Shown here piece by piece: positions 17,934-63,464 of a stretch of 64,000 nt of DNA (its first letter is position 1; each line of letters starts with the position of its first letter). The stretch is from Gammaproteobacteria bacterium (lineage in GTDB: Bacteria > Pseudomonadota > Gammaproteobacteria > SURF-13): the NCBI GenBank assembly GCA_003599485.1, contig QZKM01000006.1:2922-66921 (forward strand), in the 5' to 3' direction. A program made the translations under genes and the position numbers. The notes below the pieces were generated by a model. It was not told where the DNA came from and made no database searches. It was given only the letters and a program-made list of their open reading frames with translations.

Positions 17934-18956
17934 TTAAATCGTCTCCGCCTTCTGTTCGCGTGCGAGCAGCGCCTGCACCGCGGCGCGCGGGTTTTTGTTT
18001 TCGTGCAGCACGCAGTATACCTGCTCGCTGATGGGCATTTCTATTTTGTGCGCTTTCGCCAAACGCATGACTTCGCGCGCGGTGGGGACGCCTTCCACGA
18101 TTTGGCCGATGTCGCGCAGTGCATCCGCGAGCGCTGTGCCGCGCGCCAGGGCGAGCCCCAGGCGGCGGTTGCGGGACTGGTCGTCGGTGCAGGTGAGCAC
18201 GAGGTCGCCCAATCCGGCGAGGCCCATGAAGGTCTCGCGCTTGCCGCCGAGCGCGACGCCGAGGCGCATCATTTCCGCCAGGCCGCGGGTGACGAGCGCG
18301 GCGCGGGTGTTGGCGCCAAAGCCCAGGCCGTCAGCGATGCCGGCGGCGATGGCGAGTACGTTTTTGATCGCGCCACCCAGCTCCACACCGATGACGTCGT
18401 CCGAGGTGTAGGCACGAAACGTATCGTTGTGCAGGCGCGCGGCGAGATCGGCGGCAAATTGCGCCGTGGCGGAAGCGACGGTGAGCGCGGTGGGCGAGCC
18501 TGCCGCCACTTCGCGCGCGAAGGTGGGGCCGGAGATCACCGCCGTGGCGCGCGCGCCTATCAATTCTTGCGCCACTTCGTGCAGCAGCTTTCCCGATTCC
18601 GGCTCCAGCCCTTTGGTGGCCCAGGCGACACGCATGTGCGGTTTCAAGTGAGGTGCAAGGCGCGACAGGGTTTCGCGGAAGGCGTGGCTGGGTACGGCGA
18701 TCAGACAGTCATGCGCCACGCCCAGTACATGTGTTAAATCGGCGCTGACCTGCAGGCTGTTGGGGAAGGCCACGCCTGGTAAAAAACGCTCATTGCCGCG
18801 CTCTTTTGCGAGTCGCGTCATGTGCTCTGCGTTGTGGCCCCACAATAGAACGGGCGCGTTATTGTGCGCGAGCAGCACCGCGAGCGCCGTGCCCCAGGCG
18901 CCCGCACCGAGGATACAGAGCGGGGGAGGCGATACGTTAGCCGGGCGTGGACGCAA
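17934..18956 (-). CDS. gpsA: NAD(P)H-dependent glycerol-3-phosphate dehydrogenase
   Basis: GAGAWGTALA Rossmann motif. Conserved synteny gpsA-secB-grxC-yibN. Confidence 0.9.
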   Translation of the reverse strand: MRPRPANVSPPPLCILGAGAWGTALAVLLAHNNAPVLLWGHNAEHMTRLAKERGNERFLPGVAFPNSLQVSADLTHVLGVAHDCLIAVPSHAFRETLSRLAPHLKPHMRVAWATKGLEPESGKLLHEVAQELIGARATAVISGPTFAREVAAGSPTALTVASATAQFAADLAARLHNDTFRAYTSDDVIGVELGGAIKNVLAIAAGIADGLGFGANTRAALVTRGLAEMMRLGVALGGKRETFMGLAGLGDLVLTCTDDQSRNRRLGLALARGTALADALRDIGQIVEGVPTAREVMRLAKAHKIEMPISEQVYCVLHENKNPRAAVQALLAREQKAETI

Positions 18957-19743: not shown

Positions 19744-20172
19744 TTACCTGGTGCTGAGCGGGAACTTGGCGTCCTTCCAGGCGAGCAGGCCGCCCGCCAG
19801 TTTGTAAACCTGCGGAAAGCCCTGTTTGCGCAGAATCGTGGCGGCGCGCGCCGAGAACTGGCCGTTCTGGCAGCTTACGATAATGGGCTTGTTTTTGAGC
19901 CTTTCCAGTTCCGCCGTGCGTCCTTCGAGGTGCACCAGCGGGATGGATACGGCGTTCACGATATGGCCCTGCTTGAAATCCGACGCCTCGCGCACGTCCA
20001 GCACGGCGGCGTCTTCGCGGTTGATGAGACGCGCGGCCTCCTGCGGCGAGACTTCCTTGAAGCCCAGCACTTTCTGCGCCAGGCCGTCGGACAAGATCAG
20101 AACCACGATCACCAGCAGCGCCGTGAACAGTATCCAGTGATTGATAATAAATTGACCGATCTGCTCCATCAT
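19744..20172 (-). CDS. rhodanese-domain inner-membrane protein (YibN-like)
   Basis: N-terminal TM helix plus a rhodanese domain with active-site Cys in CQNG. The start at MMEQIGQF matches E. coli YibN. The longer ORF extension only translates the antisense of the hairpin repeat. Confidence 0.7.
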   Translation of the reverse strand: MMEQIGQFIINHWILFTALLVIVVLILSDGLAQKVLGFKEVSPQEAARLINREDAAVLDVREASDFKQGHIVNAVSIPLVHLEGRTAELERLKNKPIIVSCQNGQFSARAATILRKQGFPQVYKLAGGLLAWKDAKFPLSTR

Positions 20173-20268
20173 TCTCCTGCCCACGTATGCGTCCAGCGGC
20201 GGACGCCCCCGCTGCAACGGATAAATAAAATGGTATATAATACAGCGGTTTTGGCTCATGCCGCTATA

Positions 20269-20417
20269 GCAGGCTGTTGAGAAACAGCCTGCGTGCGGTG
20301 CAAGGTCGCACCGCCATTTTTCAAGCACGCTTTATGTGCTTGAAAAATGAAGCAAAGCAAAAATCACATTTTTTGCTTTGCGGATTGGAAAAGGCCATGG
20401 ATGGCCTTTTTCAATAA
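20269..20417. repeat. ~150-bp multi-hairpin intergenic repeat element, copy A (five consecutive stem-loops)
   Basis: It reads as five consecutive stem-loops. Examples are gcaggctgttgagaaacagcctgc, catttttcaagcac..gtgcttgaaaaatg, aagcaaagcaaaaa..ttttttgctttgc and ggccatggatggcc. The reverse complement reappears at ~85-90% identity at 36292-36440. Confidence 0.55.
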
Positions 20418-20497: not shown

Positions 20498-22066
20498 ATG
20501 CCAGAGAAACCAAGTCCGCTGCTGCTCGTTGTTCTTGACGGCTGGGGTTACAGTGAAAGCACCCGGGGCAACGCCGTGCACGGCGCGCGCAAGCCGGTGT
20601 GGGACGGGCTTTGGAAAAATTACCCGCATACCCTGATCCGCACCTCCGGCACGGACGTAGGCCTGCCCGCCGACCAGATGGGCAACTCCGAGGTGGGGCA
20701 CCTGAATCTCGGCGCTGGGCGCGTGGTGTATCAGGAATTCTCGCGCATCAGCCGCGCCATCAAGACCGGCGCGTTTTACGACAATCCCACCCTCACCGGC
20801 GCGGTGGACAAGGCGCGCTCGCACGGCAAGGCGGTGCACATCCTGGGGCTGCTCTCGCCCGGCGGCGTGCACAGTCATGAAGACCATATTCTCGCCATGG
20901 CCGAACTGGCGGTGAAGCGCGGCGCGAAGAAGGTGTACATGCACGCGTTTCTCGACGGGCGCGATACCGCGCCGAAGAGCGCGCACGGCTCGCTCAAGGC
21001 GCTGCAGGATAAACTCGATGCGCTGGGCTCCGGGTGTATCGCCTCCATCATCGGCCGCTACTACGCCATGGACCGCGACCATCGCTGGCCGCGCATCCAG
21101 CAGGCGTATGACCTCATCACCCAGGGCAAGGCGGAATTTCAGGCCGCCGATGCGTTAAGCGCGCTCGATCTGGCCTACGCGCGCGGCGAGTCGGACGAAT
21201 TCGTCAAGGCCACCGCCATCGTGCCCGCGCGCGCCAAGCCGGTGCGGATGGAGGACGGCGACGTGGTGGTGTTCATGAATTTCCGTTCCGACCGCGCGCG
21301 CCAGATCACGCGTCCGTTCATCGAACCGGATTTCGACGGCTTTCAGCGCGAGGTCAAACCCAGGCTCGGCGCGTTTGTGAGTCTCACTGAGTACAGCGAT
21401 GATTTCGACATTCCGGTGGCGTTCCCAGCGGAGCGATTGAACAACGTATTCGGCGCCTATGTTGCGCAGCGCGGCCTGCATCAACTGCGCATCGCGGAGA
21501 CCGAAAAATACGCGCATGTCACGTTCTTTTTCAACGGCGGCGAGGAGCAGCCGTTCGAGGGCGAAGACCGCATCCTGGTGCCGTCGCCGCTGGTGGCCAC
21601 CTACGATCTAAAGCCGGAGATGAGCGCGCCGGAAGTGACCGGGCGTCTGGTGCAGGCCATCGAAAGCGGCAAATACGACGTGATTATCTGCAACTTCGCC
21701 AACCCGGACATGGTGGGGCACACCGGCAGCCTCGATGCCGCGGTCAAGGCTATCGAGGCGGTAGATGCCGCGCTGGGGAAAATTCACCAAGCTCTGCAGC
21801 GCACCGGCGGCGAGATGCTCATCACCGCCGACCACGGCAACGCCGAGCAGATGATCGGCGAAGGCACCGGCCAGGCGCACACCGCGCACACCACCAATCC
21901 GGTGCCGTTTATTTACGTGGGGCGTCCGGCGCTGATCGCCAAGGGCGGTGTGTTGTCCGATGTCGCGCCCACGCTGTTGTACCTGATGGGGCTGCCCATA
22001 CCCGCCGAGATGACAGGCCGCCCGCTGGTGACGCTGGTTGAGGAAGGCCGCGCTTACGCTGGTTAG
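20498..22066 (+). CDS. gpmI: 2,3-bisphosphoglycerate-independent phosphoglycerate mutase
   Basis: 522 aa with iPGM motifs (LLVVLDGWG, catalytic Ser region, GDHGNAEQM). Confidence 0.95.
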
Positions 22067-23269: not shown

Positions 23270-24601
23270 ATGGAGTTGTTAATGAAATTCACGCCCCGTA
23301 ATTTGCTGGTCTTGCTGCTCGGCGCCGCGCTGGGTGTTTCCATCAGCCTTGGCGCCAGCGTGTTCGCGCAGCGCGAGGAGGCGCGTTCCGGTCTGCCGCT
23401 CGATGAACTGCGCACCTTCACCGATATCTTCGGCAAGATCAAAAGCGATTACGTGGAGCCGGTGGAAGACAAGATGCTGCTGGTGAACGCCATCCGCGGC
23501 ATGCTGTCCGGCTTGGATCCGCATTCCAGCTATCTCGACGCCGAGGAGTTCAAGGACCTGCAAGCCGGAACCACCGGCGAGTTCGGCGGCCTGGGGCTGG
23601 AGGTCGGCATGGAAGACGGCTTCGTCAAGGTCATCGCGCCAATAGACGATACCCCCGCCAGCCGCGGCGGGATACTGGCTGGCGACCTCATCATCCGCCT
23701 CGACGACACCCCGGTACAGGGTATGCCTCTCAACGAGGCGGTGAAACTGATGCGCGGCCCGGCGGGCAGCAGCATCACTCTCACCATTATCCGCAAGGGC
23801 GAGGAAAAACCGCTCAAGATCACGCTTACGCGCGCGGTCATCAAGGTGAAGAGCGTCAAGTCGCAAACCCTGGAACCGGGATTCGGCTACCTGCGCGTCT
23901 CGCAGTTCCAGTCGCAGACCGGCGATAACCTGATTGAAGCGGTGAAAAAACTCAAGCAGGAGAACGGCGGCAAGCTCAAGGGCATGGTGCTGGACCTGCG
24001 CAATAATCCGGGCGGCGTGTTGAACGCCGCCGTCGCGGTGAGCGATGCGTTTCTGGAGAGCGGGCTGATCGTCTACACCGAAGGCCGCATCAAGGACTCG
24101 CAACTCAAATACAGCGCTACCTCCGAAGACGTATTGAAGGGCGCGCCGCTGGTGGTGCTGGTGAACGGCGGCTCGGCCTCGGCTTCGGAGATCGTGGCGG
24201 GCGCACTGCAGGATCACAAGCGCGCGGTGGTGATGGGCGGCAAAACCTTCGGCAAGGGCTCGGTGCAAACCATCCTGCCCATGACCAATGACACCGCGCT
24301 CAAACTCACCACGGCGCGCTACTTCACGCCGAACGGACGCTCCATTCAGGCGGAAGGCATCGTGCCCGACATCGTGCTCGCCGATGTCAAGCTCACGCTG
24401 ACGGAAAAGTCCGACGTGGAACCGCTCAAGGAGGCCGACCTGAAGCGCCACTTGACCAACGGCAAGCCCTCCAACGGCGACAAGCCCAGCGCCGCGCCGG
24501 GCGCAGATAGCACCAGGGAATCGCTTATCAGCACCGACTACCAGCTTTATGAAGCGCTCAACCTGCTCAAGGGTTTGACCACCTTGCAGGGGCGTAACTG
24601 A
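23270..24601 (+). CDS. ctpA: carboxy-terminal processing protease (S41A, CtpA/Prc-like)
   Basis: Signal anchor, PDZ domain and S41 catalytic region (GGSASASEIVAGALQDHKRAVVMGGKTFGKG). Confidence 0.9.
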   Translation: MELLMKFTPRNLLVLLLGAALGVSISLGASVFAQREEARSGLPLDELRTFTDIFGKIKSDYVEPVEDKMLLVNAIRGMLSGLDPHSSYLDAEEFKDLQAGTTGEFGGLGLEVGMEDGFVKVIAPIDDTPASRGGILAGDLIIRLDDTPVQGMPLNEAVKLMRGPAGSSITLTIIRKGEEKPLKITLTRAVIKVKSVKSQTLEPGFGYLRVSQFQSQTGDNLIEAVKKLKQENGGKLKGMVLDLRNNPGGVLNAAVAVSDAFLESGLIVYTEGRIKDSQLKYSATSEDVLKGAPLVVLVNGGSASASEIVAGALQDHKRAVVMGGKTFGKGSVQTILPMTNDTALKLTTARYFTPNGRSIQAEGIVPDIVLADVKLTLTEKSDVEPLKEADLKRHLTNGKPSNGDKPSAAPGADSTRESLISTDYQLYEALNLLKGLTTLQGRN

Positions 24602-24613
24602 TAAGATTTCGCA

Positions 24614-24672
24614 CCACGCGAGATGAACTCGCGTGGGCGACTAAAGGGGAGAACTGCGTCTCTCCCCTTTAG
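24614..24672 (+). terminator. two tandem GC-rich hairpins downstream of ctpA (terminator candidate, no U-tract)
   Basis: The two hairpins are ccacgcgag-atgaa-ctcgcgtgg and ctaaaggggaga-actgcg-tctcccctttag, 13 bp after the ctpA stop. Confidence 0.4.
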
Positions 24673-24726
24673 AAACCCCATTGCCTGTAAAAGCAAGCAC
24701 AGATTATTTCTTAGGCAGGAGGTGCG

Positions 24727-34329: not shown

Positions 34330-36210
34330 TTATTGTGTCGCCTGAGCGGCGCGCTGCGTTTCAAAATGCGCGCGCACCGCACGCAGGACGCCCTCGGTAT
34401 CCAGGCCGCAATCCGCCAGCAGTTCTTCACGCGCGCCGTGCTCGACAAAGCGGTCGGGCAGACCGAGGTTTATCAGCGCGGTTCGTACCCTCGCTTGCGT
34501 CAGACATTCGGCGACCGCGCTCCCCGCGCCGCCCATGACCGAGTTGTCCTCCAGCGTAACCAGCAGTTCATGCGTGGCCGCGATCTGTAATACGAGATTC
34601 ACATCCAGCGGCTTGACGAAGCGCATGTTGATGACCGTGGCGTTGAGTTCGTCCGCCGCCGCGAGCGCTGGCTGCAGCAGGGCGCCGAAGGCGAGCAGCG
34701 CTATTTTCTTACCCTTGCGCCGCAGTTCCGCCTTGCCGATGGGGAGTGTGGCGAGACCGGGTTTGACGGCGGCGCCCGGGCCGCCGCCGCGCGGATAGCG
34801 CACCGCCGCCGGGCCGCTGTGCAGAAAGCCGGTGCTGAGCATGGCGCGGCTTTCATTTTCGTCGCCCGGTGTCATGATGACCAGATTCGGCACGCAGCGC
34901 AGAAAGCTCAAATCGAACGCGCCTGCGTGCGTCGGGCCGTCGGGGCCGACCAGACCGGCGCGGTCTATGGCGAACAGCACCGGCAGGTTTTGCAGCGCCA
35001 CGTCGTGGATCACCTGATCGTAGGCGCGTTGCAGAAAGCTGGAGTAGATCGCCACCACCGGCTTGCGGCCCTCGCACGCCAAGCCCGCGGCCAGCGTCAC
35101 GGCATGTTGTTCGGCGATGCCGACGTCGAGATAGCGTTCGGGATAGGCTTCGGAAAACTTCACCAGCCCGGAACCCTCGCGCATCGCGGGCGTGATGGCG
35201 ACGAGGCGTGAATCACGCGCGGCCATGTCACACAGCCAGTCGCCAAACACCTGCGTGTAGCTCGGTTTGGCGCCGGCCTTGGACAGCGGCTCGCCGCTTT
35301 CGATGTCGAACGCGGCGACGCCGTGATAGGCGCACGGGTCGTTCTCGGCGGGCTGGTAGCCCTTGCCTTTTTGCGTCACGATGTGCAAAAACTGCGGGCC
35401 TTTGAGCGCGCGCATGTTGCGCAGCGTGGTGAGCAGCGTGGGCAGGTCGTGGCCGTCTATCGGCCCGATATAATTAAAACCGATTTCCTCGAACAGCGTG
35501 CCGGGCGTCACCATGCCCTTCATGTGCTCCTCGGCGCGCCGCGCCCAGTCCTGCACCGGCGGCACGGCGGCAAGAATGCGTTTGCCGCGTTCGCGCACGG
35601 TGGAGTAAATCTTGCCTGACAGCACGCGCGCCAGATAATTGGACATGCCGCCCACGTTGGGCGAGATGGACATGTCGTTGTCGTTCAGTATCACCAGCAG
35701 GTTCGCGTTCAGATCGCCCGCGTGATTCAGCGCCTCGAACGACAAACCCGCGGTGAGCGCGCCATCGCCCAGCACCGCAATGACCTTGCGCTCATCCCCG
35801 TGACCGCTTTCCAGAGATTGCGCCAGCGCCATGCCCAGCGCGGCGGACACCGCGGTGCCCGCGTGGCCGGCGCCGAAGGCGTCATACGGACTTTCGTCGC
35901 GCCTGGGGAAACCGGCCAGACCGTTTTTTCGGCGCAGGTTTTTCATCTGCTCGCGCCGGCCGGTGAGGATTTTGTGCGGGTAGCTTTGATGGCCCGTGTC
36001 CCACACCAGGCGGTCGTGCGGCGTGTCAAACACGTAATGCAGCGCGATGGTCAACTCCACCGTGCCGAGGCCCGCCGCCAGATGGCCGCCGGTGCGGCCG
36101 ACGGACTCAATGAGGAACGCGCGCAGCTCGGCGGCGAGCCGGGCGAGCTGCGCTTCATCCAGCCGGCGTAAATCATCCGGCGTGCGTACTGTCTCTAGCA
36201 GAGGATACAT
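34330..36210 (-). CDS. dxs: 1-deoxy-D-xylulose-5-phosphate synthase
   Basis: 626 aa with a TPP-binding GDG-x25-N motif. Operon xseB-ispA-dxs. Confidence 0.95.
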
Positions 36211-36291
36211 GAGGCGGCGTTGGGCGAATGGTGAGGCTGACTGCGTAGTGTCACTTTAACACATTGTCAAATGCCGGGGTATCCTAACAGG

Positions 36292-36440
36292 TTGTTGAAA
36301 AAGCCCTTCCATGGGCTTTTTCAACTCGCAAAGCGAAAAGTGTCATTTTCGCTTTGCTACATTTTTCAAGCACATAAAGCGTGCTTGAAAAATGGCGGTG
36401 CGTCCCTGCACCGCACGCAGGCTGTTTCTCAACAGCCTGC
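36292..36440. repeat. ~150-bp multi-hairpin repeat element, copy B (inverted relative to copy A)
   Basis: Reverse-complement homologue of 20269-20417 at ~85-90% identity, filling the ispA-dxs intergenic region. Its last hairpin overlaps the ispA stop codon. Confidence 0.55.
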
Positions 36441-37327
36441 TAGCTTGTCCTGGCCACGATATAGTGCGCGAGCTGGCGCAATGCCTCGGCGCGGCCGTCC
36501 AGGCCGGCCAGACTGTCCAGGGCCGCGTCACGCAGGTCATTGGCGATTTGCCTGGCCTGGCTGAGGCCGAGCAGGGCGGGATAGGTGGGCTTGTTGCGCG
36601 CACGGTCCGCGCCTTGGGTTTTACCCAGGGTTTGCGTGTCGCCGGTTTCATCCAGGATGTCATCCTGAATCTGAAACGCCAGCCCGATGCGTTTGGCGTA
36701 GCGGTCAAGCTGGCTTAATACAGCTTGATCCAGGTTCGGGCCGCAGTAAGCGCCGAGCAGTACGCTGGCGCGGATCAGCGCGCCGGTTTTCTGTACATGC
36801 ATCAGTTCCAGTTCGGCCAGGCTTAAGGTTTTGCCGGCCGCCGCGAGGTCCAGCGCCTGGCCGCCCGCCATGCCGTGTGAACCGCTCGCCTGCGCCAGTG
36901 TTTCAATCATCTTGACGCGCATCGAGTCAGTGACCGGCGGTGCAGCGCGGGCAAGCAACTGAAACGCGAGCGCGATCAGCGCATCGCCCGCCAGAATGGC
37001 GGTGGCCTCGCCGAACGCCTTGTGACAGGTTGGTTTGCCGCGGCGCAGGTCATCGTCGTCCATCGCGGGCAGGTCGTCATGCACCAGCGAATAGGCGTGA
37101 ATCATCTCCACCGCGCAGGCGGGCGCATCGAGTAGCGCCGGCTCCGCGCCCGTGACGCATCCGGCGGCGTACACCAGGGCGGGGCGGATGCGCTTGCCGC
37201 CGTCCAGCACCGCGTAACGCATCGCGCGATGCAACTCCGCGGGGGCGGAGCCGGCCGGCGGCAGGCAGGCGTTCAACGCGCGCTCAACGCGCGCCTGATA
37301 CTCGTTGAGCAGCGCTTCGGCTGACAT
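36440..37327 (-). CDS. ispA: (2E,6E)-farnesyl diphosphate synthase
   Basis: First DDxxD motif (LVHDDLPAMDDDDLRRGK) and second DD motif (FQIQDDILD). Start taken at MSAEALL. Confidence 0.9.
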   Translation of the reverse strand: MSAEALLNEYQARVERALNACLPPAGSAPAELHRAMRYAVLDGGKRIRPALVYAAGCVTGAEPALLDAPACAVEMIHAYSLVHDDLPAMDDDDLRRGKPTCHKAFGEATAILAGDALIALAFQLLARAAPPVTDSMRVKMIETLAQASGSHGMAGGQALDLAAAGKTLSLAELELMHVQKTGALIRASVLLGAYCGPNLDQAVLSQLDRYAKRIGLAFQIQDDILDETGDTQTLGKTQGADRARNKPTYPALLGLSQARQIANDLRDAALDSLAGLDGRAEALRQLAHYIVARTS

Positions 37328-37349
37328 GGAAATGGAAAGCGGGAGGCGC

Positions 37350-37586
37350 TTACTCTTCTTCCGGCTCAAAAGGTTCGACGCGCAACGCGCCGTCCTTTTC
37401 CATGAGGATGTGCACCTTCTGCTCCGCGTCGCGCAGGGCCTTCTGACAGGCGCGCGTGAGTTCGATGCCGCGCTCGAAGTGTTTGAGCGAGTCCTCCAGG
37501 CTGATCTCGCCTTGTTCCATGCGCTCGACCAGCGCCTCCAGCTCCTTCAGGGCTTTTTCAAAATCCAGCGGCGTTTTCTTGGACAT
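37350..37586 (-). CDS. xseB: exodeoxyribonuclease VII small subunit
   Basis: 78 aa; LEELE..LE.G...LE.SL..FE.G consensus. Confidence 0.9.
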
Positions 37587-38926: not shown

Positions 38927-40138
38927 ATGAACCTGGTCTATAAACACGAAAAACCGCTGTTCTATATTCTGGTGGTTATCTCACTGTTGATTTGGATTGG
39001 TGTAATTGCCGTTACCTCCGGCATCGCGCTGATTTACGTGGCAGTGGCTTTTATCTTTTATCTGTTTTTCCAGTCGGCCTTTATTTCTTATTTGAAGGGT
39101 ACGGCGGTCAAAATCACCGTGCAACAGTTTCCCGATCTCCATGAGCGCGTTACAGCGTGCTGCGCCAGGCTTGGTATCAGTAAAATTCCCGATGCCTATT
39201 TGCTGCGTTCCGACGGAGCATTCAATGCCTTCGCCACGCGCTTCCTGGGGCGTAATTTCATCGCCCTGTATTCCGAGCTCGCCGACGCGCTGGAGGCGCA
39301 ACCGGGCGCCCTCGACTTTTATATTGGCCATGAGTTGGGCCACATTCATCGCGGCCATCTCAAGTGGCATGTATTCACCTGGCCCGCGAGCATTCTGCCG
39401 TTGCTCGGCGCGGGCTATTCCAGGGCGTGTGAATATACCTGTGATCGCTATGGCCTTGCCTGTGTCACCGATCCGAACGATGCAAAAGCGGGGATGGCGG
39501 CGCTGGCGGCGGGCGCCAAACGCTGGCGCACGCTCAGTCATCAGCACTATGCCGCCCAGGACACGCGTGGTTTCTGGATGTCCTTTCATGAGTTGACCGG
39601 CGACTATCCCTGGCTCACCAAGCGTATGGCCACGCTGGATGCCTTGATCGCCAGGCAGCCCGTGCGCCTGCCGCGGCGCAACATTTTCGCCTGGCTGCTC
39701 GCGCTGTTTGTCCCGCGCCTGGGGCTGGGTAAAGGGGCGGCGGGCGGGATGATTGTCCTGCTGGTCATCGTCGGCGTACTCGCCGCGATTTCCTTTCCGG
39801 CGTATCAAGAGTTTCAGATGCGTGCCAACGTGGCGGGCGTCTTTGCCGAAATCGGCCATGTGAAGACCGCCATTGACACCTACCGTTTGGATAATAACGC
39901 CCTGCCCAACAGCAATGAGGAACTCAACCTGCCGGTAACGGGCGACTATGGTAAAAATATCCAATCCATTGCAGTGAGCGAGGGCGGGATCATCACCGTC
40001 ACGTTGACGGGGGCGCTGGAGGATAAGTCAGTGGTGCTGGGCTATATTGAAGGGAGCGAAGGGGAGGTATGGGCGTGTGAAAGCGATACCCTCGACAAAA
40101 AATATCTGGAGCGATATTGCCAGGTGGTAGGCCAATAG
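38927..40138 (+). CDS. M48-family zinc metallopeptidase fused to a C-terminal leaderless type IV pilin-like domain
   Basis: HExxH motif HELGHIHRGH within a membrane-embedded M48 core. The last ~140 aa resemble a mature type IVa pilin: hydrophobic alpha1 (MIVLLVIVGVLAAISFPAYQEFQMRANVAGVFAEIG) and a C-terminal Cys pair (WACESD...YC). It lacks the G|FTLIE prepilin cleavage motif. An RBS (gaggggg) precedes the ATG. Confidence 0.6.
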   Translation: MNLVYKHEKPLFYILVVISLLIWIGVIAVTSGIALIYVAVAFIFYLFFQSAFISYLKGTAVKITVQQFPDLHERVTACCARLGISKIPDAYLLRSDGAFNAFATRFLGRNFIALYSELADALEAQPGALDFYIGHELGHIHRGHLKWHVFTWPASILPLLGAGYSRACEYTCDRYGLACVTDPNDAKAGMAALAAGAKRWRTLSHQHYAAQDTRGFWMSFHELTGDYPWLTKRMATLDALIARQPVRLPRRNIFAWLLALFVPRLGLGKGAAGGMIVLLVIVGVLAAISFPAYQEFQMRANVAGVFAEIGHVKTAIDTYRLDNNALPNSNEELNLPVTGDYGKNIQSIAVSEGGIITVTLTGALEDKSVVLGYIEGSEGEVWACESDTLDKKYLERYCQVVGQ

Positions 40139-40176
40139 CCCGATTGAAAACCGGAATATCACAGGGGACCCTGTTC

Positions 40177-41121
40177 ATGAAATGTGATTTGCATGGAATC
40201 ATCAAAGCGCTGTGGATAGTCATGAGCCTGATGGCTGCGGGCAGCGCCGCGTTCGCGGCGGAGCCGGCGCCGGATTATCTTGCCCAGGGGCAGCAGAAAT
40301 ACCAGGCCAAGGACTATCAGGGCGCGCTGGCGGACTTTGATCTCGCGGTGAACGCCGCGCCTAGGCGCGCCGAGGCCTATTATTGGCGCGGGGTGACCAA
40401 GATTGATCTCAAGCTTGCCAAATCCGCCATCACCGATTTTGACCAGGCCATCCGCCTGAAGAAAAATTACGCCGATGCCTATTACGAGCGCGCGTACGCC
40501 AAAAGCGAGATCGGCGATTATCAGGGCGCGCTCAAGGATTTGGACAAGGTAGTCGCGCTCAAGCCCGATCACGTCAATGCCTACAACGAGCGCGGCTGGG
40601 TCAAGACGCAGCTTGGCGACCACCGCGGCGCGATCAAGGATTCGGACAAGGCCATTGCGCTCAAGCCCGATTGGGCGACGCCCTACCGCGTGCGCGGCGA
40701 CGCCAAAAACAAACTGCAAGACCTGGGCGGAGCCATCGCGGACTGGCAAAGGGCGATCCAGCTTGACGCCAGTTTTGCCCAGATATTGAATCCGGAGATA
40801 GACAAGGCCCAGGCCGCGCTCAAGACCCAGGCCCACGCCGGAAAGTGCGCTGGCGAATTGATTACGACCAGTGGTTATGTCATCAACTGGACCGAGTGGG
40901 GCGAGCGCTATGGCATCGCCAATCCGTTTCTCATCATCAGCGGTCCGGAATATCAGGGCGAGGATGGCAAGACCCCGTACTATGGTTTGTATAATTTTCC
41001 CCATCTCAAGGACGCTGGGAACATAAGCCTTACCGGCTGCGTGCCGCAGCAGCGCTCGCCATACCGGGGCCTCAAGTACTTCAGCGAGGTGTATGAGGTG
41101 CAGTCGGTGGCGCCGCACTAG
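40177..41121 (+). CDS. TPR-repeat protein, secreted
   Basis: Signal peptide (LMAAGSAAFAA) followed by ~5 TPR units (AEAYYWRG.., ADAYYERA.., VNAYNERG.., ATPYRVRG..) and a C-terminal domain of unknown function. Confidence 0.7.
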   Translation: MKCDLHGIIKALWIVMSLMAAGSAAFAAEPAPDYLAQGQQKYQAKDYQGALADFDLAVNAAPRRAEAYYWRGVTKIDLKLAKSAITDFDQAIRLKKNYADAYYERAYAKSEIGDYQGALKDLDKVVALKPDHVNAYNERGWVKTQLGDHRGAIKDSDKAIALKPDWATPYRVRGDAKNKLQDLGGAIADWQRAIQLDASFAQILNPEIDKAQAALKTQAHAGKCAGELITTSGYVINWTEWGERYGIANPFLIISGPEYQGEDGKTPYYGLYNFPHLKDAGNISLTGCVPQQRSPYRGLKYFSEVYEVQSVAPH

Positions 41122-41277
41122 CAGTTCGTTGAAAAACGAACTGCTAGGCGCCACAAGGATGTGTCGCATCGAAAATCGAACACGCCAGTGTTTGATTTTC
41201 GATGCGAGCCGCGGGCGTGTACCGCGGCGAGCGAGTTGAAAAACGCCAGGGACGGCGTTTTTCAACAAACTGCTAGT
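41118..41277. repeat. 160-bp multi-hairpin element bounded by 9-bp inverted repeats CTAGCAGTT / AACTGCTAG
   Basis: Contains four stem-loops (gcagttcg-ttgaaaaa-cgaactgc, gcatcgaaaatcgaa..ttgattttcgatgc, ccgcgg..ccgcgg, ttgaaaaacgcc..ggcgtttttcaa). The first hairpin shares the GCAG-N4-GTTGARAAAC-N4-CTGC design of the A/B repeats. It begins at the TPR gene stop codon. Confidence 0.4.
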
Positions 41278-41441
41278 CCCGCCGCCGGCTATTTCTAAAG
41301 TGTGAACGGCGCCAGGCCCCGTACCGCGGCCTGTCCGCACGCTTCTTCATGCGTCAATTTTGCCCGCTTTAACAGGCGTTTTTCATCCAGAGGCCGCATT
41401 TTTACTGTATAATGGGCGGTTTGGTTTCCCGGATGTTTCCC

Positions 41442-43262
41442 ATGCTGGATAAATTACGCAATATCGCCATCATCGCCCACGTGGATCACGGCAAGACCAC
41501 GCTGGTGGACAAGCTGTTGCAGCAATCGGGCGCCTTTGGCGAACGCGCGGCGCTGACCGAACGGGTGATGGACTCCAACGATCTGGAGCGCGAGCGCGGC
41601 ATCACCATCCTGGCCAAGAACACCGCGCTGCGCTGGAACGATTACCGCATCAACATCGTGGACACCCCCGGCCACGCCGACTTCGGCGGCGAGGTGGAGC
41701 GCGTGCTCTCGATGGTGGATTCGGTGCTGCTGCTGGTGGATGCGGTGGACGGCCCCATGCCGCAGACCCGTTTCGTGACGCAGAAGGCGTTTGCGCTGGG
41801 TTTGAAGCCCATCGTGGTCATCAACAAGGTGGATCGCCCCGGCGCGCGCCCGCACTGGGTGCTGGACCAGACCTTCGATTTGTTCGACAATCTCGGCGCC
41901 ACCGATGAGCAACTGGACTTTCCGGTGGTATACGCCTCGGCGCTGCACGGCTATGCCGGTCTGGATGAAACGGTGCGCTCGGGCGACATGACGCCGCTGT
42001 TCGAGACCATCGTCAAGCACGTCAAGCCGCCGCAGGTGGACCCGGCGGGGCCGTTCCAGATGCAGGTGAGCTCGCTGTCTTATTCCAGCTACGTCGGCGT
42101 GATTGGCATCGGGCGCATCACGCGCGGGCGCATCAAGACCAATACGCCGGTGGTGGTGGTGAACCGCCAGGGCGAAAAGCGCAACGCGCGCGTGCTGCAA
42201 CTGTTCAACATGCTCGGCCTGGAGCGCATCGAAATTCCCGAAGCCGAGGCGGGCGACATCATCGCCTTCACCGGCATCGAAGGGCTGGGGATTTCCGACA
42301 CGCTGTGCGACCCCACCGCCGTCGAGGCCCTGCCCGCGCTGGTGGTGGACGAGCCGACGGTGAGCATGACGTTTCAGGTCAACACCTCGCCGCTCGCGGG
42401 CAAGGATGGCAAGTACATTACCAGCCGCCAGATCCGCGAGCGCCTGCAACGCGAACTGATACACAATGTCGCGCTGCGCGTGGACGAAACCGACGACCCG
42501 GACAAGTTCCGCGTCTCCGGGCGCGGTGAACTGCACCTCTCCATCCTGATTGAAAACATGCGCCGCGAAGGCTATGAGCTGGCCGTGGGCCGCCCGCAGG
42601 TGATTTTGAAACAAGTGAACGGCGTGTTATGCGAGCCGTATGAAAACCTGGTGGTGGACGTCGAGGAGCAGCATCAAGGCGCGGTGATGGAGCGCCTGGG
42701 CGCGCGCAAGGGCGACCTTGCCAATATGCAGTCCGACGGCAAGGGGCGGGTGCGTCTCGACTACATGATTCCCACGCGCGGGCTGATCGGCTTTCGCAAC
42801 GAATTCCTGACCCTTACCTCCGGCACCGGCCTGCTGCACAGCGTTTACCATCACCACGGCGAGCAGAAAAAGGGCGGCATCGGCCAGCGCGTGAACGGCG
42901 CCCTGATCAGCAACGGCGCGGGCAAGAGCGTGGCCTACGCGCTGTTCAGCCTGCAGGAGCGCGGCCGGTTGTTTATCGGCCCGGGCGAGGAGTTGTACGA
43001 AGGCATGGTGATCGGCATCCACTCGCGCGATAACGATCTGGTGGTGAACCCGCTGCGTGGCAAGCAGCTTACCAACATCCGTTCCGCCGGGGCGGACGAA
43101 AATATCATCCTGACGCCGCCAATACGCATGACGCTGGAACAGGCGCTGGAATTCATAGACGACGATGAACTGGTTGAAGTCACCCCGCACTACACCCGCA
43201 TCCGCAAGCGGTTGTTGCTGGAACACGAGCGCAAAAGAGCTTCGCGCGCGGCGGCGGGCTAA
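41442..43262 (+). CDS. typA: translational GTPase TypA/BipA
   Basis: G1 [10 protein letters not shown]3 DTPGH and EF-G-like domains. A TATAAT at ~41408 precedes it. Confidence 0.95.
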
Positions 43263-43277
43263 GGTTTTCCTTGAGCC

Positions 43278-43985
43278 TCAGCCCGTGCGCGATTGCGCCG
43301 CGGGCGCGAAGAAGCGGTAGCCTGAGCCGCGCACGGTTTCTATCAAGTGATCGTGGCCGTATTTTTTCAGCGCCAGGCGCAGACGCCGGATGTGAACGTC
43401 CACGGTGCGCTCGCCGATGTAGACGTTCCTGCCCCACACCAGATCGAGCAACTGACTGCGGCTGTACACGCGCCCGGCATGGGTCATGAAAAAGTGCAGC
43501 AGGCGGAATTCCGTGGGGCCCATCTCCACCGCGTGCCCGCGTGAACTGACGCGGTGGCTGACGGGATCAAGATGCAGGTGGGCGATTTCAATGGCGTCGT
43601 CGGTGGCCTGCGGCGCGGTGCGGCGCAATACCGCGCGGATGCGCGCCATCAGTTCGTTGGGCGAAAACGGCTTGGTGATGTAATCGTCGGCGCCGGTTTC
43701 CAGGCCCTTGATCTTGTCGGCCTCTTCGCCGCGCGCGGTGAGCATGATGATCGGTATCCCGCGCGTCGCCTCTTCACGCTTCAGGCGCCGCGCAAAATCT
43801 ATGCCGCTCAGCCCCGGCAGCATCCAGTCCAACAGTATCAGCACCGGAGGTTCGGCGATGATTTTCGCCTGCGCCTGTTCGGCATTGTGCGTCTCGCTGT
43901 AGTCGTAGCCCGCGCGCGCAAGCGCGAAACCGATCATCTCACAGATGGCCGGCTCGTCATCTACGATCAGTATCGTGTTGGCCAT
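43278..43985 (-). CDS. phoB: phosphate regulon response regulator PhoB (OmpR family)
   Basis: Receiver domain (ILIVDDE...D at [10 protein letters not shown]) plus a PhoB-like winged helix. A canonical Pho box lies upstream. No phoR is adjacent. Confidence 0.75.
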
Positions 43986-44040
43986 GGCTGGCTTGTTGGT
44001 CTTTAATATTCATGTTGAATGACTATTAAAGTGTAAAATT

Positions 44041-44058
44041 ATTACAGTTATATTACAG
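44041..44058 (-). promoter_or_regulatory. Pho box (CTGTAAT-ATAA-CTGTAAT) upstream of phoB
   Basis: On the minus strand it reads CTGTAATATAACTGTAAT, a 7-4-7 direct repeat matching the PhoB-binding consensus CTGTCAT-N4-CTGTCAT. It sits ~56 bp upstream of the phoB ATG. Confidence 0.5.
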
Positions 44059-44068
44059 GGCCGGGATT

Positions 44069-45913
44069 TTAGTTCAGGAGCGGCAATTGGTCGGCGGAAT
44101 GGTCCGCCGTACGGCGGTCTATGAACAGGCTGTTGCCGCTCATGCTCTTGGCCTGGTGCTTGATCTCACCGGCGCGCACGGAAATCTCATGATGGGTCGA
44201 GAAGCGCCCTGACGGCGCCTCCACGGCGGCGATGGAGAGGCTCATGACCGGATAAAACAATTCATGGCCGCGCCGGTCCTTGGCCCACATGCCCCCCGCC
44301 GCGCGATGTCCGGCGTCATAGAGATGCAGGATTTCGCGCTCGAAACGTTGCAGGATGGAGCGGCAACGCTGTTGCCAGTCCTGGCTCAAAAACACCACGA
44401 TAAAGTCATCGCCGCCGATATGCCCCACAAAGTCATGCCTGTCATGCGCATGCTCGGCCAGAATGCCGGCCAGCAGTTTAATCGCTTCGTCGCCGCGGGC
44501 GTAGCCGTAGACGTCATTGAACGGCTTGAAATTGTCCAGGTCGCAGTAACACATGACAAAGGCCCAGCGTTTCTGCAGCAGGTCGTCCAGACATTCGTTG
44601 ATGGGCACGCTGCCGGGCAACAGGGTGAGCGGATTGGCGTAACGGGCGTTGCGCACCTGCAGGTCGGTGATCTTGCGCAGCAGGTCGGTGAGCGTGCCTA
44701 CCCCGGCATAGTGGCCGCGCGCGGTGATGATGAATTCATCGCTCATCTGCAACCCCGATTCGCTGGTAACGAGCTTGCTCAGTTTTTCCAGAGGCAGGTT
44801 CTGGTCCACGATCAGGGGTTTTTTGTCCATGAAGCGCGCGACGGGTTTTTTGCTGTGCAACTCGCGCCCGTAACGGCTGGCGAACACGTTCATGAACTGG
44901 TTGCGCCGCACCAGGCCGACCGGCACGTTGTCCTCGCGCACCACGGGCAGGGAGCTTAAGTGCGGCGCGCCGCAAAACAACTCGCCTACTTCGTGGAATG
45001 TCAGGCTTGGGCGTATGGACGCGCGTTCCATGATGAGCGCCGCCGTGGTGCTGAAACGCTGTGAACTGCGCAGATGAAACTGCGAGCTGCGCATGCGCCC
45101 GGCCATCATCACGGCCTGCGGCAGCATCCGGAGCGCGATGGCGTGAGGACGGGAAAAATAGTAACCCTGCCCCATCGGGATACCGAGATCCCGAATCGCC
45201 AGATACTCCTCTTTTGTTTCTATGCCCTCCGCGATCACTTTGCAATTCAGCGTCAGCGCGATTTCATGGATGGATTGCACGAACTTGCGCTTGACCACGT
45301 CTTCGTGGATACCCTGCACGAAGTGCATGTCTATTTTCACGTAGTCGGGACGCAGTTCCGACCACAGGCGCAACCCGGAATAACCCGCGCCCAGGTCGTC
45401 AATGGCCACCTCCAGCCCCATGGTTTTATAGTGCAGCGCCGCATTGTGCAATACCGTGTGGTCGTGTATCGGAGTATGTTCGGTGATCTCCATGACCACT
45501 TGCTCCGGGTCCATGCCCAAGGCCGCCATGTGCTGCAGGGTGAGCCCCGGTTTGAAGTCCGGCTGCAAAAGGCAGGCGGGGTTGATATTAAGAAACAGCT
45601 TGCCGGTCAGGCGTTGCTCTTTATAAGACTGCAGGGCCGCCTGCCGGCACAGCAGATCGAGTTCCAGCAGCCGTCCGGCGCGCAGCGCGGTGTCGAATAA
45701 ATTATCCGGCGTATGCAGTACGCTGTCCGAGGGGCCGCGGATCAGCGCCTCATAGCCGTAAATCGTGTTGTCCGAAAGCAACACGACGGGCTGAAATAAA
45801 GGGGTAAGCAACCGCTGTTCCATGATGTCATGGAGGGTCCTGGCCTGTGTCCAGTGTGCTTCCGCCTGATCGGCGGAAGGAGGGGCGTGCTGCTCAGCAC
45901 GGTAAGTAACCAT
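44069..45913 (-). CDS. c-di-GMP phosphodiesterase: EAL domain - CBS pair - degenerate GGDEF (GGDDF)
   Basis: The N-terminal EAL domain has all catalytic motifs (EALIR, EITE, DDLGAGYS, KIDMHF, AEGIET, QGYYFSRP). The central region is CBS-like. The C-terminal GGDEF fold has HIGGDDF in place of GG(D/E)EF. Confidence 0.75.
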   Translation of the reverse strand: MVTYRAEQHAPPSADQAEAHWTQARTLHDIMEQRLLTPLFQPVVLLSDNTIYGYEALIRGPSDSVLHTPDNLFDTALRAGRLLELDLLCRQAALQSYKEQRLTGKLFLNINPACLLQPDFKPGLTLQHMAALGMDPEQVVMEITEHTPIHDHTVLHNAALHYKTMGLEVAIDDLGAGYSGLRLWSELRPDYVKIDMHFVQGIHEDVVKRKFVQSIHEIALTLNCKVIAEGIETKEEYLAIRDLGIPMGQGYYFSRPHAIALRMLPQAVMMAGRMRSSQFHLRSSQRFSTTAALIMERASIRPSLTFHEVGELFCGAPHLSSLPVVREDNVPVGLVRRNQFMNVFASRYGRELHSKKPVARFMDKKPLIVDQNLPLEKLSKLVTSESGLQMSDEFIITARGHYAGVGTLTDLLRKITDLQVRNARYANPLTLLPGSVPINECLDDLLQKRWAFVMCYCDLDNFKPFNDVYGYARGDEAIKLLAGILAEHAHDRHDFVGHIGGDDFIVVFLSQDWQQRCRSILQRFEREILHLYDAGHRAAGGMWAKDRRGHELFYPVMSLSIAAVEAPSGRFSTHHEISVRAGEIKHQAKSMSGNSLFIDRRTADHSADQLPLLN

Positions 45914-49185: not shown

Positions 49186-49255
49186 ACAGTGGCGAGTGGC
49201 TAGTCGCTAGCAACAGAAATGTTCTTGTCACTTGTCACTAGCCACTCGCCACTGT
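49186..49255. repeat. 19-bp perfect inverted repeat (ACAGTGGCGAGTGGCTAGT ... ACTAGCCACTCGCCACTGT) immediately 3' of tRNA-Gly
   Basis: Arms at 49186-49204 and 49237-49255 with a 32-bp spacer. It ends 7 bp from the tRNA 3' end. It shares the AGTGGCGAGTRGCTAGT motif with the thiG 3' end. Confidence 0.45.
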
Positions 49256-49262
49256 TGTAATT

Positions 49263-49336
49263 TGGAGCGGGTGATGGGAATCGAACCCACGTTATCAGCT
49301 TGGGAAGCTGAAGTTCTACCATTGAACTACACCCGC
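49263..49336 (-). tRNA. tRNA-Gly (anticodon CCC)
   Basis: 74-nt cloverleaf folded by hand. Acceptor GCGGGUG/CACCCGC, U8, D-stem GUUC/GAAC, anticodon stem UCAGC/GCUGA with loop UUCCCAA, T-loop UUCGAUU, discriminator U73 and an encoded CCA. Confidence 0.85.
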
Positions 49337-49666: not shown

Positions 49667-50485
49667 ATGAGCGCTCTGCCGTCAACCCAGCCTCAGCACG
49701 CCGATCCGCTCATCATCGCGGGCAAACGCTATACGTCACGCCTGCTGGTCGGCACCGGCAAGTACCGCGATCTGGATGAGACGCGCCGTGCCGTCGAGGC
49801 GAGCGGGGCCGAGATCGTCACCGTCGCCATCCGCCGCACCAACATCGGCCAGCATGCGAACGAGCCCAATCTGCTCGACGTGCTGCCGCCGCAGCGTTAC
49901 ACGATACTGCCCAACACCGCGGGCTGTTACACGGCCGAGGACGCGATACGCACCTGCCGCCTCGCGCGCGAGCTGCTGGACGGCCATGATCTGGTGAAGC
50001 TTGAAGTGCTGGGCGATCAGAAGACCTTGTTCCCTGATATTCCCGCGACCCTCAAGGCCGCGGAAATCCTGGTTAAAGAGGGCTTCAAGGTGATGGTGTA
50101 CACCAGCGACGACCCGCTCATCGCCAAGCGCCTGGAGGAGATGGGTTGCGTGGCGGTGATGCCGCTCGCCGCGCCCATCGGGTCGGGCCTTGGCATACGC
50201 AACCCTTACAACATCCGTTTGATCGTGGAAAACGCCAAGGCGCCGATACTGGTGGACGCCGGCGTGGGCACCGCCTCCGACGCCGCCATCGCCATGGAGC
50301 TGGGCTGCGACGGCGTACTCATGAACACCGCCATCGCCGCGGCGAAAAATCCGGTGTTGATGGCCACTGCCATGAACAAGGCGGTGCAGGCCGGGCGCGA
50401 GGCGTATCTGGCCGGGCGCATGCCGCGTAAGCTCTATGCGAACGCATCGTCGCCCATTGACGGAATGTTCTTTAGTGGCGAGTAG
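49667..50485 (+). CDS. thiG: thiazole synthase ThiG
   Basis: [19 protein letters not shown] followed by a TIM barrel with conserved Lys. Start taken at MSALP. Confidence 0.9.
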
Positions 50486-50552
50486 CTAGTGGCGAGTAGC
50501 CAAGAAAAGAATTGATACCTCGCCACTGGCCACCCGCAACTCGCTACTGCCT
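50473..50552. repeat. tandem 14-bp duplication TAGTGGCGAGTAGC x2 spanning the thiG stop codon, followed by inverted partial copies (large dyad)
   Basis: The 14-mers at 50473-50486 and 50487-50500 are identical. Inverted partial copies lie at 50519-50532 (cctcgccactggcc) and 50537-50552 (gcaactcgctactgcc). It shares its motif with 49186-49204. Confidence 0.4.
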
Positions 50553-50554
50553 TT

Positions 50555-51217
50555 ATGCGCCCCATCCGCAGTTACGTGTTGCGCCAGGGGCGCATGACGC
50601 GCGCTCAGCAGCATGCGCTTGATACACTATGGCGGCGCTATGGGGTAGGGTTTCAGGATGCTCCGTTTGATTTCGATGCGCTGTTTGGCCGCCGCGCGCC
50701 GCGTGTGCTGGAAATAGGCTTCGGCGCGGGCGATGCGCTGCTCGCCGAGGCGGGCGCGCATCCGGAAAACGACTATCTCGGCGTCGAGGTGCACCGCCCC
50801 GGCGTGGGGAACTTGCTGCGGCGTCTCGACGCGCAAGGCCTGGTCAACGTGCGCGTCATCTGCCGCGACGCGGTGGAGGTCTTGCAGCGCTCGATCCCCG
50901 ACGCGAGCCTGAGCGCAGTGTACGTATTTTTCCCCGACCCCTGGCCCAAACGCCGCCATCACAAGCGCCGCCTGGTGCAGCCGTCTTTTGCTGATCTCGT
51001 TGCCCGGAAGCTCACGCCGGGCGGGCGGCTCCATCTCGCCACGGATGACGAAGACTACGCGCGACAGGGTATGCACGTGCTAACCCGCTGTTCAAAGTTA
51101 AAAAATATTCATGGTCCGGGAGTGTTTGGCGGCGCCTTGCTGCGCGCGCCCAGCCGCTTCGAGCAGCGCGCCCTGAGGGAGGAGCGGCCGGTATGGGATA
51201 TGGTATTTGAGGGGTAG
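50555..51217 (+). CDS. trmB: tRNA (guanine46-N7)-methyltransferase TrmB
   Basis: SAM-binding motif (LEIGFGAGD) and a DPWPKRRHHKRR block. Confidence 0.9.
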   Translation: MRPIRSYVLRQGRMTRAQQHALDTLWRRYGVGFQDAPFDFDALFGRRAPRVLEIGFGAGDALLAEAGAHPENDYLGVEVHRPGVGNLLRRLDAQGLVNVRVICRDAVEVLQRSIPDASLSAVYVFFPDPWPKRRHHKRRLVQPSFADLVARKLTPGGRLHLATDDEDYARQGMHVLTRCSKLKNIHGPGVFGGALLRAPSRFEQRALREERPVWDMVFEG

Positions 51218-53606: not shown

Positions 53607-54024
53607 AATACAGAGAAAAGGGGAAAGGGCAAAGGGCAAAGGGAACAGAATTAGGATTTTTCCCTTTGTCCTTTCCCCTTTTCTCTTTGCCCTGTTCTCG
53701 GTTCAAGCCGGATTGCCACAGGTGGAAGGAGAGCTTTCCGATCCCACCAGGCCCCCGGACTATCGGGCGGCCGCCGCCGGGATCGCCGATGCCGTGGCCG
53801 CGCCGCAGTGGGTGCTGAAATCCATACTGATTTCACCCGGCCGGCGCAGCGCTGTTTTGAATGGACGCGCAATCAAAAAGGGCGAACAATTGGACAACCA
53901 GGTGACGGTGCTGGACATCCTGCCCGGCTCGGTATTATTGAAAGGCGCGGAGGGCGAATTTTCTGTGAATTTATTACCCACAACGGTCAAGATGCCGGTC
54001 AATTCCGGGAGCCCGGTCCAATGA
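53599..54024 (+). CDS. mshK: MSHA biogenesis protein MshK (PilP-like lipoprotein/periplasmic)
   Basis: The GTG start overlaps the mshJ end. Lys/Arg-rich n-region then hydrophobic FVLSPFLFALFSVQAG. Overlaps mshL as caATGa. The start assignment is uncertain (ATT/CTG alternatives). Confidence 0.45.
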   Translation: MCEIQRKGERAKGKGNRIRIFPFVLSPFLFALFSVQAGLPQVEGELSDPTRPPDYRAAAAGIADAVAAPQWVLKSILISPGRRSAVLNGRAIKKGEQLDNQVTVLDILPGSVLLKGAEGEFSVNLLPTTVKMPVNSGSPVQ

Positions 54025-63005: not shown

Positions 63006-63464
63006 ATGGATATCAGAAAACAACCCGGCTTCACCCTCATCGAACTGGTGCTGGTCATCACCATCCTCGGTATCCTCGCCGCCTTCGCGGTGCCGCGCTT
63101 TATCAGCATAAGCGCAGACGCCCGCCTGGCGACGGTGAACAGCCTGGCCGGCAGCCTGCGCAGCGCCGCGGCGCTGGCGCATAGCGTCGCCCTGGTGCAG
63201 GCCGCGGGGGCAAGCTCCTCCATCAGCGTGGACGGAGCGACAGTAACCATGGTGCAACACTATCCCGCGGGCACCGCCGATGGTATCGTTGCCGCACTTC
63301 AGGATTTGACAGGATTCACCTCCTCCGCTTCAGCCGGCATCGTCACTTTCCAGGTCAAAGGCGTAGCCACGCCGGCTTCGTGTCAGGTGCAGTACACACA
63401 GGCAAGCGGGACAGGAGGGGCGCCCACGATCACCGTGACGGCGAGCACTTCGGGTTGTAGTTAA
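63006..63464 (+). CDS. mshB: MSHA-type type IV pilin (MshB-like), class III prepilin
   Basis: MDIRKQPG|FTLIELVLVITILGILAAFAVPRF leader and alpha1 helix. Confidence 0.75.
   Translation: MDIRKQPGFTLIELVLVITILGILAAFAVPRFISISADARLATVNSLAGSLRSAAALAHSVALVQAAGASSSISVDGATVTMVQHYPAGTADGIVAALQDLTGFTSSASAGIVTFQVKGVATPASCQVQYTQASGTGGAPTITVTASTSGCS

Follow-up and report, generated by a model that had tools for sequence, protein, structure and literature searches.

The window (the whole 64,000-nt stretch of DNA analysed here) contains two inverted look-alike loci, which a first-pass annotation had described as ~150-bp intergenic units, each made of five consecutive near-perfect stem-loops. Both loci are real and so are their stem-loops. 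Copy A lies between a minus-strand rhodanese-domain (yibN-like) gene and gpmI, and copy B lies between ispA and dxs, in agreement with the gene context first proposed. The overlap of copy B with the end of ispA also held: the ispA TAG makes up the first three bases that had been assigned to the repeat. A partial match to hairpin 5 at 41231–41276 led to a full third element, copy C, and the window therefore holds three copies rather than two. The features are listed below, with hairpins abbreviated as HP, terminal inverted repeats as TIR, and scores in bits from a covariance model (R1) run with its filters off.

19744–20170, − strand: rhodanese-domain (yibN-like) gene, left of copy A; start ATG at 20170 read from the sequence; orthologues PF00581, 141–142 aa
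20266–20425, + strand: copy A, full element with flanking 4-mers ATAG...ATTG; R1 166 bits, model positions 1–158; absent from loci L086–L088; right terminal repeat degenerate, CAATAATTTA in place of CAACAACCTG
20270–20284, + strand: left TIR of copy A, CAGGCTGTTGAGAAA; exact TIR-pattern match
20269–20292, + strand: HP1 of copy A, left TIR paired with its own internal complement; MFE fold
20295–20314, + strand: HP2 of copy A, G+C-rich stem followed by CATTTTT, terminator-like on the + strand; fold and terminator scan
20315–20349, + strand: HP3 of copy A, CATTTTTCAAGCAC ... GTGCTTGAAAAATG, which served as search pattern; fold
20352–20381, + strand: HP4 of copy A, terminator-like on the − strand; fold and terminator scan
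20384–20415, + strand: HP5 of copy A, holding the inner part of the right TIR; fold and terminator scan
20498–22066, + strand: gpmI, right of copy A; 100% match named 2,3-bisphosphoglycerate-independent phosphoglycerate mutase
34330–36210, − strand: dxs, downstream of copy B; 100% match named DXP synthase
36284–36443, − strand: copy B, full element with 4-mers CTAG...TTAG on the − strand; R1 178 bits
36440–36417, 36414–36395, 36394–36360, 36357–36328 and 36325–36294, − strand: HP1 to HP5 of copy B; fold
36439–36425 and 36302–36288, − strand: TIRs of copy B; TIR-pattern matches
36440–36442, − strand: TAG stop of ispA, within the left target-site duplication of copy B; ORF 36440–37369 (−), orthologues annotated polyprenyl_synt
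41118–41276, + strand: copy C, full element with CTAG on both sides; fold; R1 123 bits; no element there in L085
41122–41136 and 41258–41272 (− strand): TIRs of copy C, CAGTTCGTTGAAAAA and CAGTTTGTTGAAAAA, respectively
41118–41147, 41152–41163, 41164–41207, 41208–41228 and 41235–41266, + strand: HP1 to HP5 of copy C; fold
41119–41121, + strand: TAG stop of ORF 40117–41121, within the left duplication of copy C; 346 open codons upstream

The segments 20267–20417 and 36292–36442 form the longest inverted pair returned by a repeat search of the window (151 nt, 91% complementary), and A and B match each other with an E value of 2e-47 (blastn). The length first given for the unit was too short, however, and the true unit comes to ~160 bp once the right terminal repeat and the flanking 4-mers are counted. 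Because the right end of A is degenerate, the similarity between A and B had appeared to stop ~10 nt early. Over the full element the two copies are 91% identical. The copies in the window measure 159–160 bp, variants of the family range from 138 to 292 bp, and the only open reading frames across the elements are spurious read-through.

Most differences between A and B fall in loops, and their stems carry two compensatory double changes (A-T to G-C in hairpin 4 and G-C to C-G in hairpin 5) as well as one G.U to A-U change. Copy C represents a diverged subfamily that has five hairpins with stem sequences unlike those of A and B, and each of the three copies belongs to a different subfamily. No fourth copy was found in the window by the covariance model with filters off, which is the informative result of that scan because A, B and C are all in the seed of the model. 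Weak model matches at 24562–24703, 50479–50622 and 18458–18567 correspond to other hairpins and not to family members. Two strong hairpins at 24600–24680, directly 3' of the stop of ORF 23270–24601 (region z = −5.1), likewise give weak matches on both strands and do not belong to the family.

The window is syntenic with contig 19 of the metagenome-assembled genome (MAG) JBGFRC01 (locus L010) at 87–90% nucleotide identity. Synteny is lost around copy C, where ~4 kb of the window (40142–44079) faces ~1.3 kb of L010 (1506–2774). The window part contains a 334-aa ORF (40117–41121), copy C and a 616-aa ORF (41412–43262). The first of these ORFs is possibly VIT1-like, as judged solely from the VIT1 genes in L084 and L085, and the second is probably BipA by synteny. 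A weak family match lies at 2528–2700 in the L010 counterpart.

The predicted folds are exceptionally stable. Copies A and B fold at −92.9 kcal/mol (z = −11.6) and −94.6 kcal/mol (z = −11.2), values equalled by 0/200 shuffles in either case, and copy C folds at −101.1 kcal/mol (z = −10.1). Hairpin 1 arises from pairing of the left TIR with its own complement, and the right TIR forms half of hairpin 5, so that the ends of the element are sequestered locally and do not pair with each other.

We searched 185,579 species-representative genomes for hairpin 3, using the pattern TTTCAAGCAC N5–9 GTGCTTGAAA, and obtained 81 loci. About 65 of them are true copies in ~10 uncultured gammaproteobacterial MAGs and ~13 others are chance matches in unrelated genomes; JBGFRC01 alone accounts for ~25 pattern loci. 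Hairpin 3 looks universal in this set because it was the probe, and the hairpin 3 of copy C differs. In 0.54 Mb of fetched loci, the covariance model found ~90 forward-strand copies, many of which lack the probe sequence. More than 30 of the copies in the fetched loci are in those of JBGFRC01, and three lie within 5.5 kb of L082. These secondary copies, together with three copies per 64 kb in the window, suggest a density of roughly one copy per 15–20 kb and probably 150–250 copies per genome (~1% of the DNA), figures that are extrapolations, since repeats interrupt MAG assemblies. Contig ends carry many of the copies, and the family thus explains contig breaks in the MAGs of this clade.

The family is modular, with 160-, 177- and 241-nt forms and forms that lack HP1 or HP5. 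Insertions of 17 and 81 nt concentrate in the hairpin-2 loop, and the 81-nt one, which is structured, occurs at L010 6386–6466 and at ~10 other JBGFRC01 loci, where it produces the 241-nt variant. Comparison of the whole window with Rfam 15 at gathering thresholds returned tRNA only, and permissive scans of A and C gave unrelated miRNA and antisense models at 18–25 bits against thresholds of 61–90, the best E-values (0.005–0.4) being to unrelated miRNA models. PLSDB plasmids yielded no match (blastn, distant mode), and a scan of IMG/VR with the hairpin-3 pattern gave one match, a coincidence within coding sequence. Full-text literature searches with the terminal and hairpin sequences, and on the themes of MITEs, stop codons and CTAG, returned nothing relevant.

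The element is bounded by 15-nt TIRs, CAGGYTGTTGARAAA, with a 3–4-bp direct repeat, NTAG, at either side. The left TIR, CAGGCTGTTGAGAAA, and the right TIR, (complement of) CAGGTTGTTGAAAAA, are identical at 13/15 positions, and TIRs are present at both ends of B, C and ~40 copies elsewhere, the degenerate right end being that of A. The flanking 4-mers are ATAG...ATTG for A, CTAG...TTAG for B and CTAG...CTAG for C. Across 60 full-length copies, oriented by the covariance model, we counted perfect 4-bp direct repeats in 31 (TTAG 15, CTAG 11, ATAG 3 and TCAG 2), and the left and right 4-mers agree at their four positions in 53, 51, 51 and 49 copies. The agreement of the variable first base, in 53/60 copies, extends to near-identical copies inside one MAG, which carry differing 4-mers and yet have left equal to right. 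The repeat therefore derives from the target and not from the element.

CTAG and TTAG thus dominate the duplications, with ATAG and TCAG seen less often. For some copies a duplication of 3 bp (NTA) fits better, G then being the element's first base: the right side ends in NTAA in four copies, and left position 4 is T in the JAKPSH01 subfamily. The duplications are strictly oriented: among the asymmetric perfect pairs, 0/20 are in the opposite orientation (no CTAA, CTAT or CTGA), and the sequence is always NTAG when read in the orientation of the element. A duplication of TA only (IS630/mariner-like; mariner ends also start NCAGGT) was rejected, because the bases beside TA agree between left and right and TCAG/TCAG pairs exist. 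An IS200/IS605-like insertion 3' of its target with no duplication was rejected on the same agreement of flanking bases and the same TCAG/TCAG pairs. At two places, L051 1383–1552/1549–1790 and L026 at about 4155/4160, two abutting elements have one TTAG in common, as if the second had entered the duplication of the first.

All three sites in the window are empty in at least one relative. At the site of copy B, L083 (dxs 88% identical) reads ...aaagTTAGgatacc..., with a single TTAG, where the window reads ...aagCTAG[element]TTAGgatacc..., and L084 and L085 likewise have no element between ispA and dxs. The interval between the rhodanese gene and gpmI that holds copy A is empty in L086–L088 (gpmI 78–93% identical), with both flanks aligning, and L085 lacks an element in the intergenic position of copy C. 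The ispA–dxs insertion is common to the window, L082 and L010 (three species; dxs 87–92% identical), and these copies are set apart only by extra sequence in the loop of hairpin 2, their lengths being 160 nt (window), 177 nt (L082) and 241 nt (L010). In L082, a diverged member at 2489–2647 lies inside the last codons of dxs and gives the gene a new short tail, with a TAA supplied by the loop of the first hairpin; this end of dxs is free of any element in the window, L083 and L084.

The elements are thus non-coding, shorter than 500 bp, bounded by TIRs and a target duplication, dispersed in many copies across several genomes, and polymorphic for presence and absence, which are the attributes that identify a MITE. 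It is highly probable that A, B and C are copies of a previously undescribed ~160-bp MITE family in an uncultured gammaproteobacterial clade. The "MITE/REP-type mobile repeat" of the first-pass annotation was therefore right in its first half; the second half fails on the presence of TIRs and a duplication.

The most likely source of mobility for such a family is a DDE transposase acting in trans and generating YTAR-type duplications (IS5/IS701-like), an assignment of low confidence that is guessed from the length and sequence of the duplication. YTAR is the target of the IS5 group, and a 3–4-bp staggered cut at a YTAR-like site is a hallmark of the IS5 group and IS701. A DDE-type transposase encoded elsewhere would bind both ends, make a 3–4-bp staggered cut at a YTAR-like site and insert the element. 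Where the target included TAG or TAA, its duplication would rebuild the stop codon, which would account for most surviving copies being on stops. For its spread or tolerance, the element would probably require the palindromes as DNA or in transcripts of both orientations; they would encode no specific RNA. In 0.5 Mb of related loci (8-kb pieces from fragmented MAGs), we found neither an autonomous partner, sought as TIR pairs 0.4–3.5 kb apart with matching repeats, nor a multi-copy transposase-like ORF. ATAG and TCAG targets and strict target orientation are not known features of the IS5 and IS701 families, and a strictly oriented NTAG is at odds with a simple symmetric DDE complex, which would give both orientations.

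The flanking repeat provides the stop codon of a neighbouring gene in 35/60 copies (58%; 20 left, 17 right and 2 both), counting open frames of at least 100 codons, with the right-side cases on the opposite strand, and B (ispA) and C (ORF 40117–41121) belong to this group. By comparison, gene stops make up ~8% of the TAG sites that lie outside predicted coding interiors in these loci, a background that comes from a rough gene model and would roughly double if opposite-strand TAA were added. Because the duplication rebuilds the stop codon, insertion at such a site leaves the gene intact. At L082 3038–3197, the element lies between convergent genes and its flanking 4-mers give both stops (open frames of 179 and 229 codons).

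The excess of stop codons (58% versus about 8–15%) could reflect target choice as an alternative to selective survival. In the version of this idea that we considered, an asymmetric transposase reads the folded hairpins at the ends, aims at stop codons and places hairpin or terminator modules behind genes. The absence of opposite orientations in 20 asymmetric pairs and the enrichment for stop codons leave room for stop-codon-seeking transposition of this kind, although we regard it as improbable.

A slightly less probable alternative, which we also consider unlikely, is that the repeat is a host-beneficial, domesticated cassette, a bidirectional terminator, insulator or mRNA-stabilising module placed behind stop codons, whose function keeps the hairpins. 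The majority of copies that abut stop codons would fit such a role, as would the retention of the ispA–dxs copy in three species. So would the sequence of the main subfamily, in which CATTTTT follows HP2 on the forward strand and HP4 on the reverse strand and HP5 is an A5-stem-T5 palindrome; terminator-like sites number 5 in A and 3 in B, versus ~0.6–0.7 expected. This arrangement of T-tracts is missing, however, in copy C and in the Chromatiaceae-MAG subfamily, both of which keep five hairpins, and a terminator is therefore not a conserved property of the family. Copy A lies between divergent genes, where no terminator is needed, and copy B lies inside the ispA–dxs operon, where termination would cut off dxs. 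Close relatives also do without the element at the same sites.

Conservation of the stems bears on the same question. In an alignment of 31 elements from at least 9 genomes, standard pairs occupy 91.6% of cells, compared with 38–46% when the partners are slid by 1–3 columns. Changes on both sides were observed in 31/57 pairs, all five stems co-vary, and 0/500 shuffles match the observed values. Stem columns are 2.5 times less variable than unpaired columns (0.089 versus 0.222 in 41 main-family copies), as a cassette with a function would predict. In the subfamilies of the MAGs JAKPSH01 and JBGSTR01, nearly every stem sequence differs while the order of the five hairpins is kept. The compensatory differences are common to whole subfamilies across genomes, indicating that they arose in spreading source copies and not locus by locus, which argues against maintenance as a cassette. 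For the MITE family that we favour, this suggests that the palindromes matter for the propagation or tolerance of the element.

The terminator-like modules of the main subfamily may nevertheless have effects as a by-product of insertion, which is what survives of the earlier proposal of a transcription-attenuating RNA element; as a primary identity that proposal is not supported. The putative terminator stems (HP2 plus T5 forward, HP4 plus T5 reverse, and HP5) may attenuate or insulate transcription, for example in the leader of gpmI or at ispA/dxs. The orientation of copy B is that of ispA and dxs, and copy A has a conserved TATATAAT box on one side and the gpmI start on the other. This box, at 20233–20241 upstream of A, is kept in 4/4 orthologous intergenic regions between the rhodanese gene and gpmI. 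If it is the gpmI promoter, copy A falls in the gpmI 5' leader, and attenuation of dxs or gpmI transcription is conceivable.

The extreme folding z-scores and abundant covariation, and the shared orientation of A and B with respect to the gene downstream, might instead point to a family of small structured RNA genes, or to a cis-regulatory leader RNA, read from one strand. A small-RNA gene family was among the identities first proposed, and we now consider it very unlikely as the primary one. Over 79 copies, G.U pairs occupy 58 cells and A.C pairs 53 (28 versus 28 positions), so that neither strand is favoured and the structural constraint is strand-symmetric. An apparent strand bias in the 21-sequence seed (G.U 33 versus A.C 5 cells) vanished with 79 copies. 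Orientation relative to the adjoining gene is random (20 versus 17), and no consensus promoter was found in or beside A or C. The symmetry of the wobbles, the random orientation and the lack of an Rfam family match all argue against a strand-specific RNA gene or leader, and inverted ends, flanking duplications and empty sites are foreign to RNA genes.

Strand-symmetric conservation is expected of DNA hairpins, and it would also suit REP/BIME- or REPIN-type palindromes spread by a RAYT (Y1/HUH) transposase that acts on single-stranded hairpins. Those elements resemble the present family in grouping short palindromes into clusters that lie mainly at gene 3' ends, and its modular length variants fit as well. 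However, REPs, REPINs and IS200/IS605-type elements have neither target duplications nor TIRs, and the left–right agreement of the variable first base of the 4-mer, even between near-identical copies in one genome, leaves this explanation with a very small probability; nor was a RAYT gene noticed close to any copy. The explanation that the pair is a local duplication arising by chance, or a set of convergent terminators that belong to no family, can be dismissed: A and B match with E = 2e-47, and dozens of copies were found in other genomes. The first-pass annotation would have taken a lack of both further copies and compensatory changes as refutation, and both are clearly present.

The window also contains other repeats. 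Palindromic arrays at 49188–49253 and 50474–50541 constitute a second, unrelated repeat with a 7-nt-periodic motif, AGTGGCGAGTRGCTAGT (8 matches versus 0.14 expected), and one of them adjoins a tRNA gene at 49266–49336 (−). An isolated long hairpin at 53612–53686 has 29-nt purine-rich and pyrimidine-rich arms that are 93% complementary and 17 nt apart (AGAGAAAAGGGGAAAGGGCAAAGGGCAAA ...). A 300-nt direct repeat (63012–63311 and 63527–63826; 77% identity, 515 nt apart) may have arisen by tandem duplication of a gene or domain, and runs of CACCAC/CGGCAC-type repeats with 12–15-nt spacing at 54593–54634 and 55214–55270 are probably a low-complexity coding repeat.

The MITE family has practical consequences for annotation, since these ~160-bp units should be masked as mobile repeats and not called sRNAs, terminators or riboswitches. 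It also illustrates how a transposon can persist in nature when it lands on a stop codon and restores it. Insertion brings hairpins into operons such as ispA–dxs and into leaders such as that of gpmI, and can alter the end of a gene, as with the dxs tail in L082; the element may therefore modulate the expression of core metabolic genes. The transposase, if found, could show how an asymmetric 4-bp target is read.

Among known systems, the closest general parallel is with the bacterial MITEs reviewed in PMC10969869 (Correia/NEMIS of Neisseria, ERIC, RUP and the QMITEs of Coxiella). Like these, the present elements are shorter than 500 bp, non-coding, multi-copy, mostly intergenic and strongly folding, have TIRs and direct repeats, and sometimes alter gene ends; they are also richer in A+T than their host (43–53% versus 62% G+C). 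Correia and RUP duplicate TA and QMITE2 duplicates 7–9 bp, whereas the present family duplicates NTAG. Ordinary MITEs usually form a single long hairpin by folding end to end. The present family, unlike Correia, ERIC, RUP and QMITE, has five independent hairpins with locally paired ends and lies mostly on a stop codon. With the IS5 group and IS701 it has in common a 4-bp YTAR-type duplication (CTAG, and TTAG = CTAA), but it lacks a transposase gene. IS701 makes exactly 4-bp duplications (PMC2266710), and the term YTAR occurs in PMC5009759. The ends of the present element are unlike the IS701 end consensus as printed in PMC2266710 (---YACT-Y--YR-), the comparison being with that consensus only. 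REP/BIME and REPIN–RAYT systems (PMC2817692) are similar in being extragenic palindromes in mosaics at gene 3' ends that can affect mRNA stability, but REPs are tied to a RAYT gene and lack the TIRs and target duplications, the latter being present here. Finally, BOX and SPRITE of Streptococcus pneumoniae are also modular, multi-hairpin, non-coding dispersed repeats, and SPRITE resembles a Rho-independent terminator (PMC10969869), although they come from another phylum and have other sequences. BOX consists of repeated boxA, boxB and boxC modules with no defined 4-bp duplication, whereas the present family has five different hairpins in a fixed order between inverted ends.
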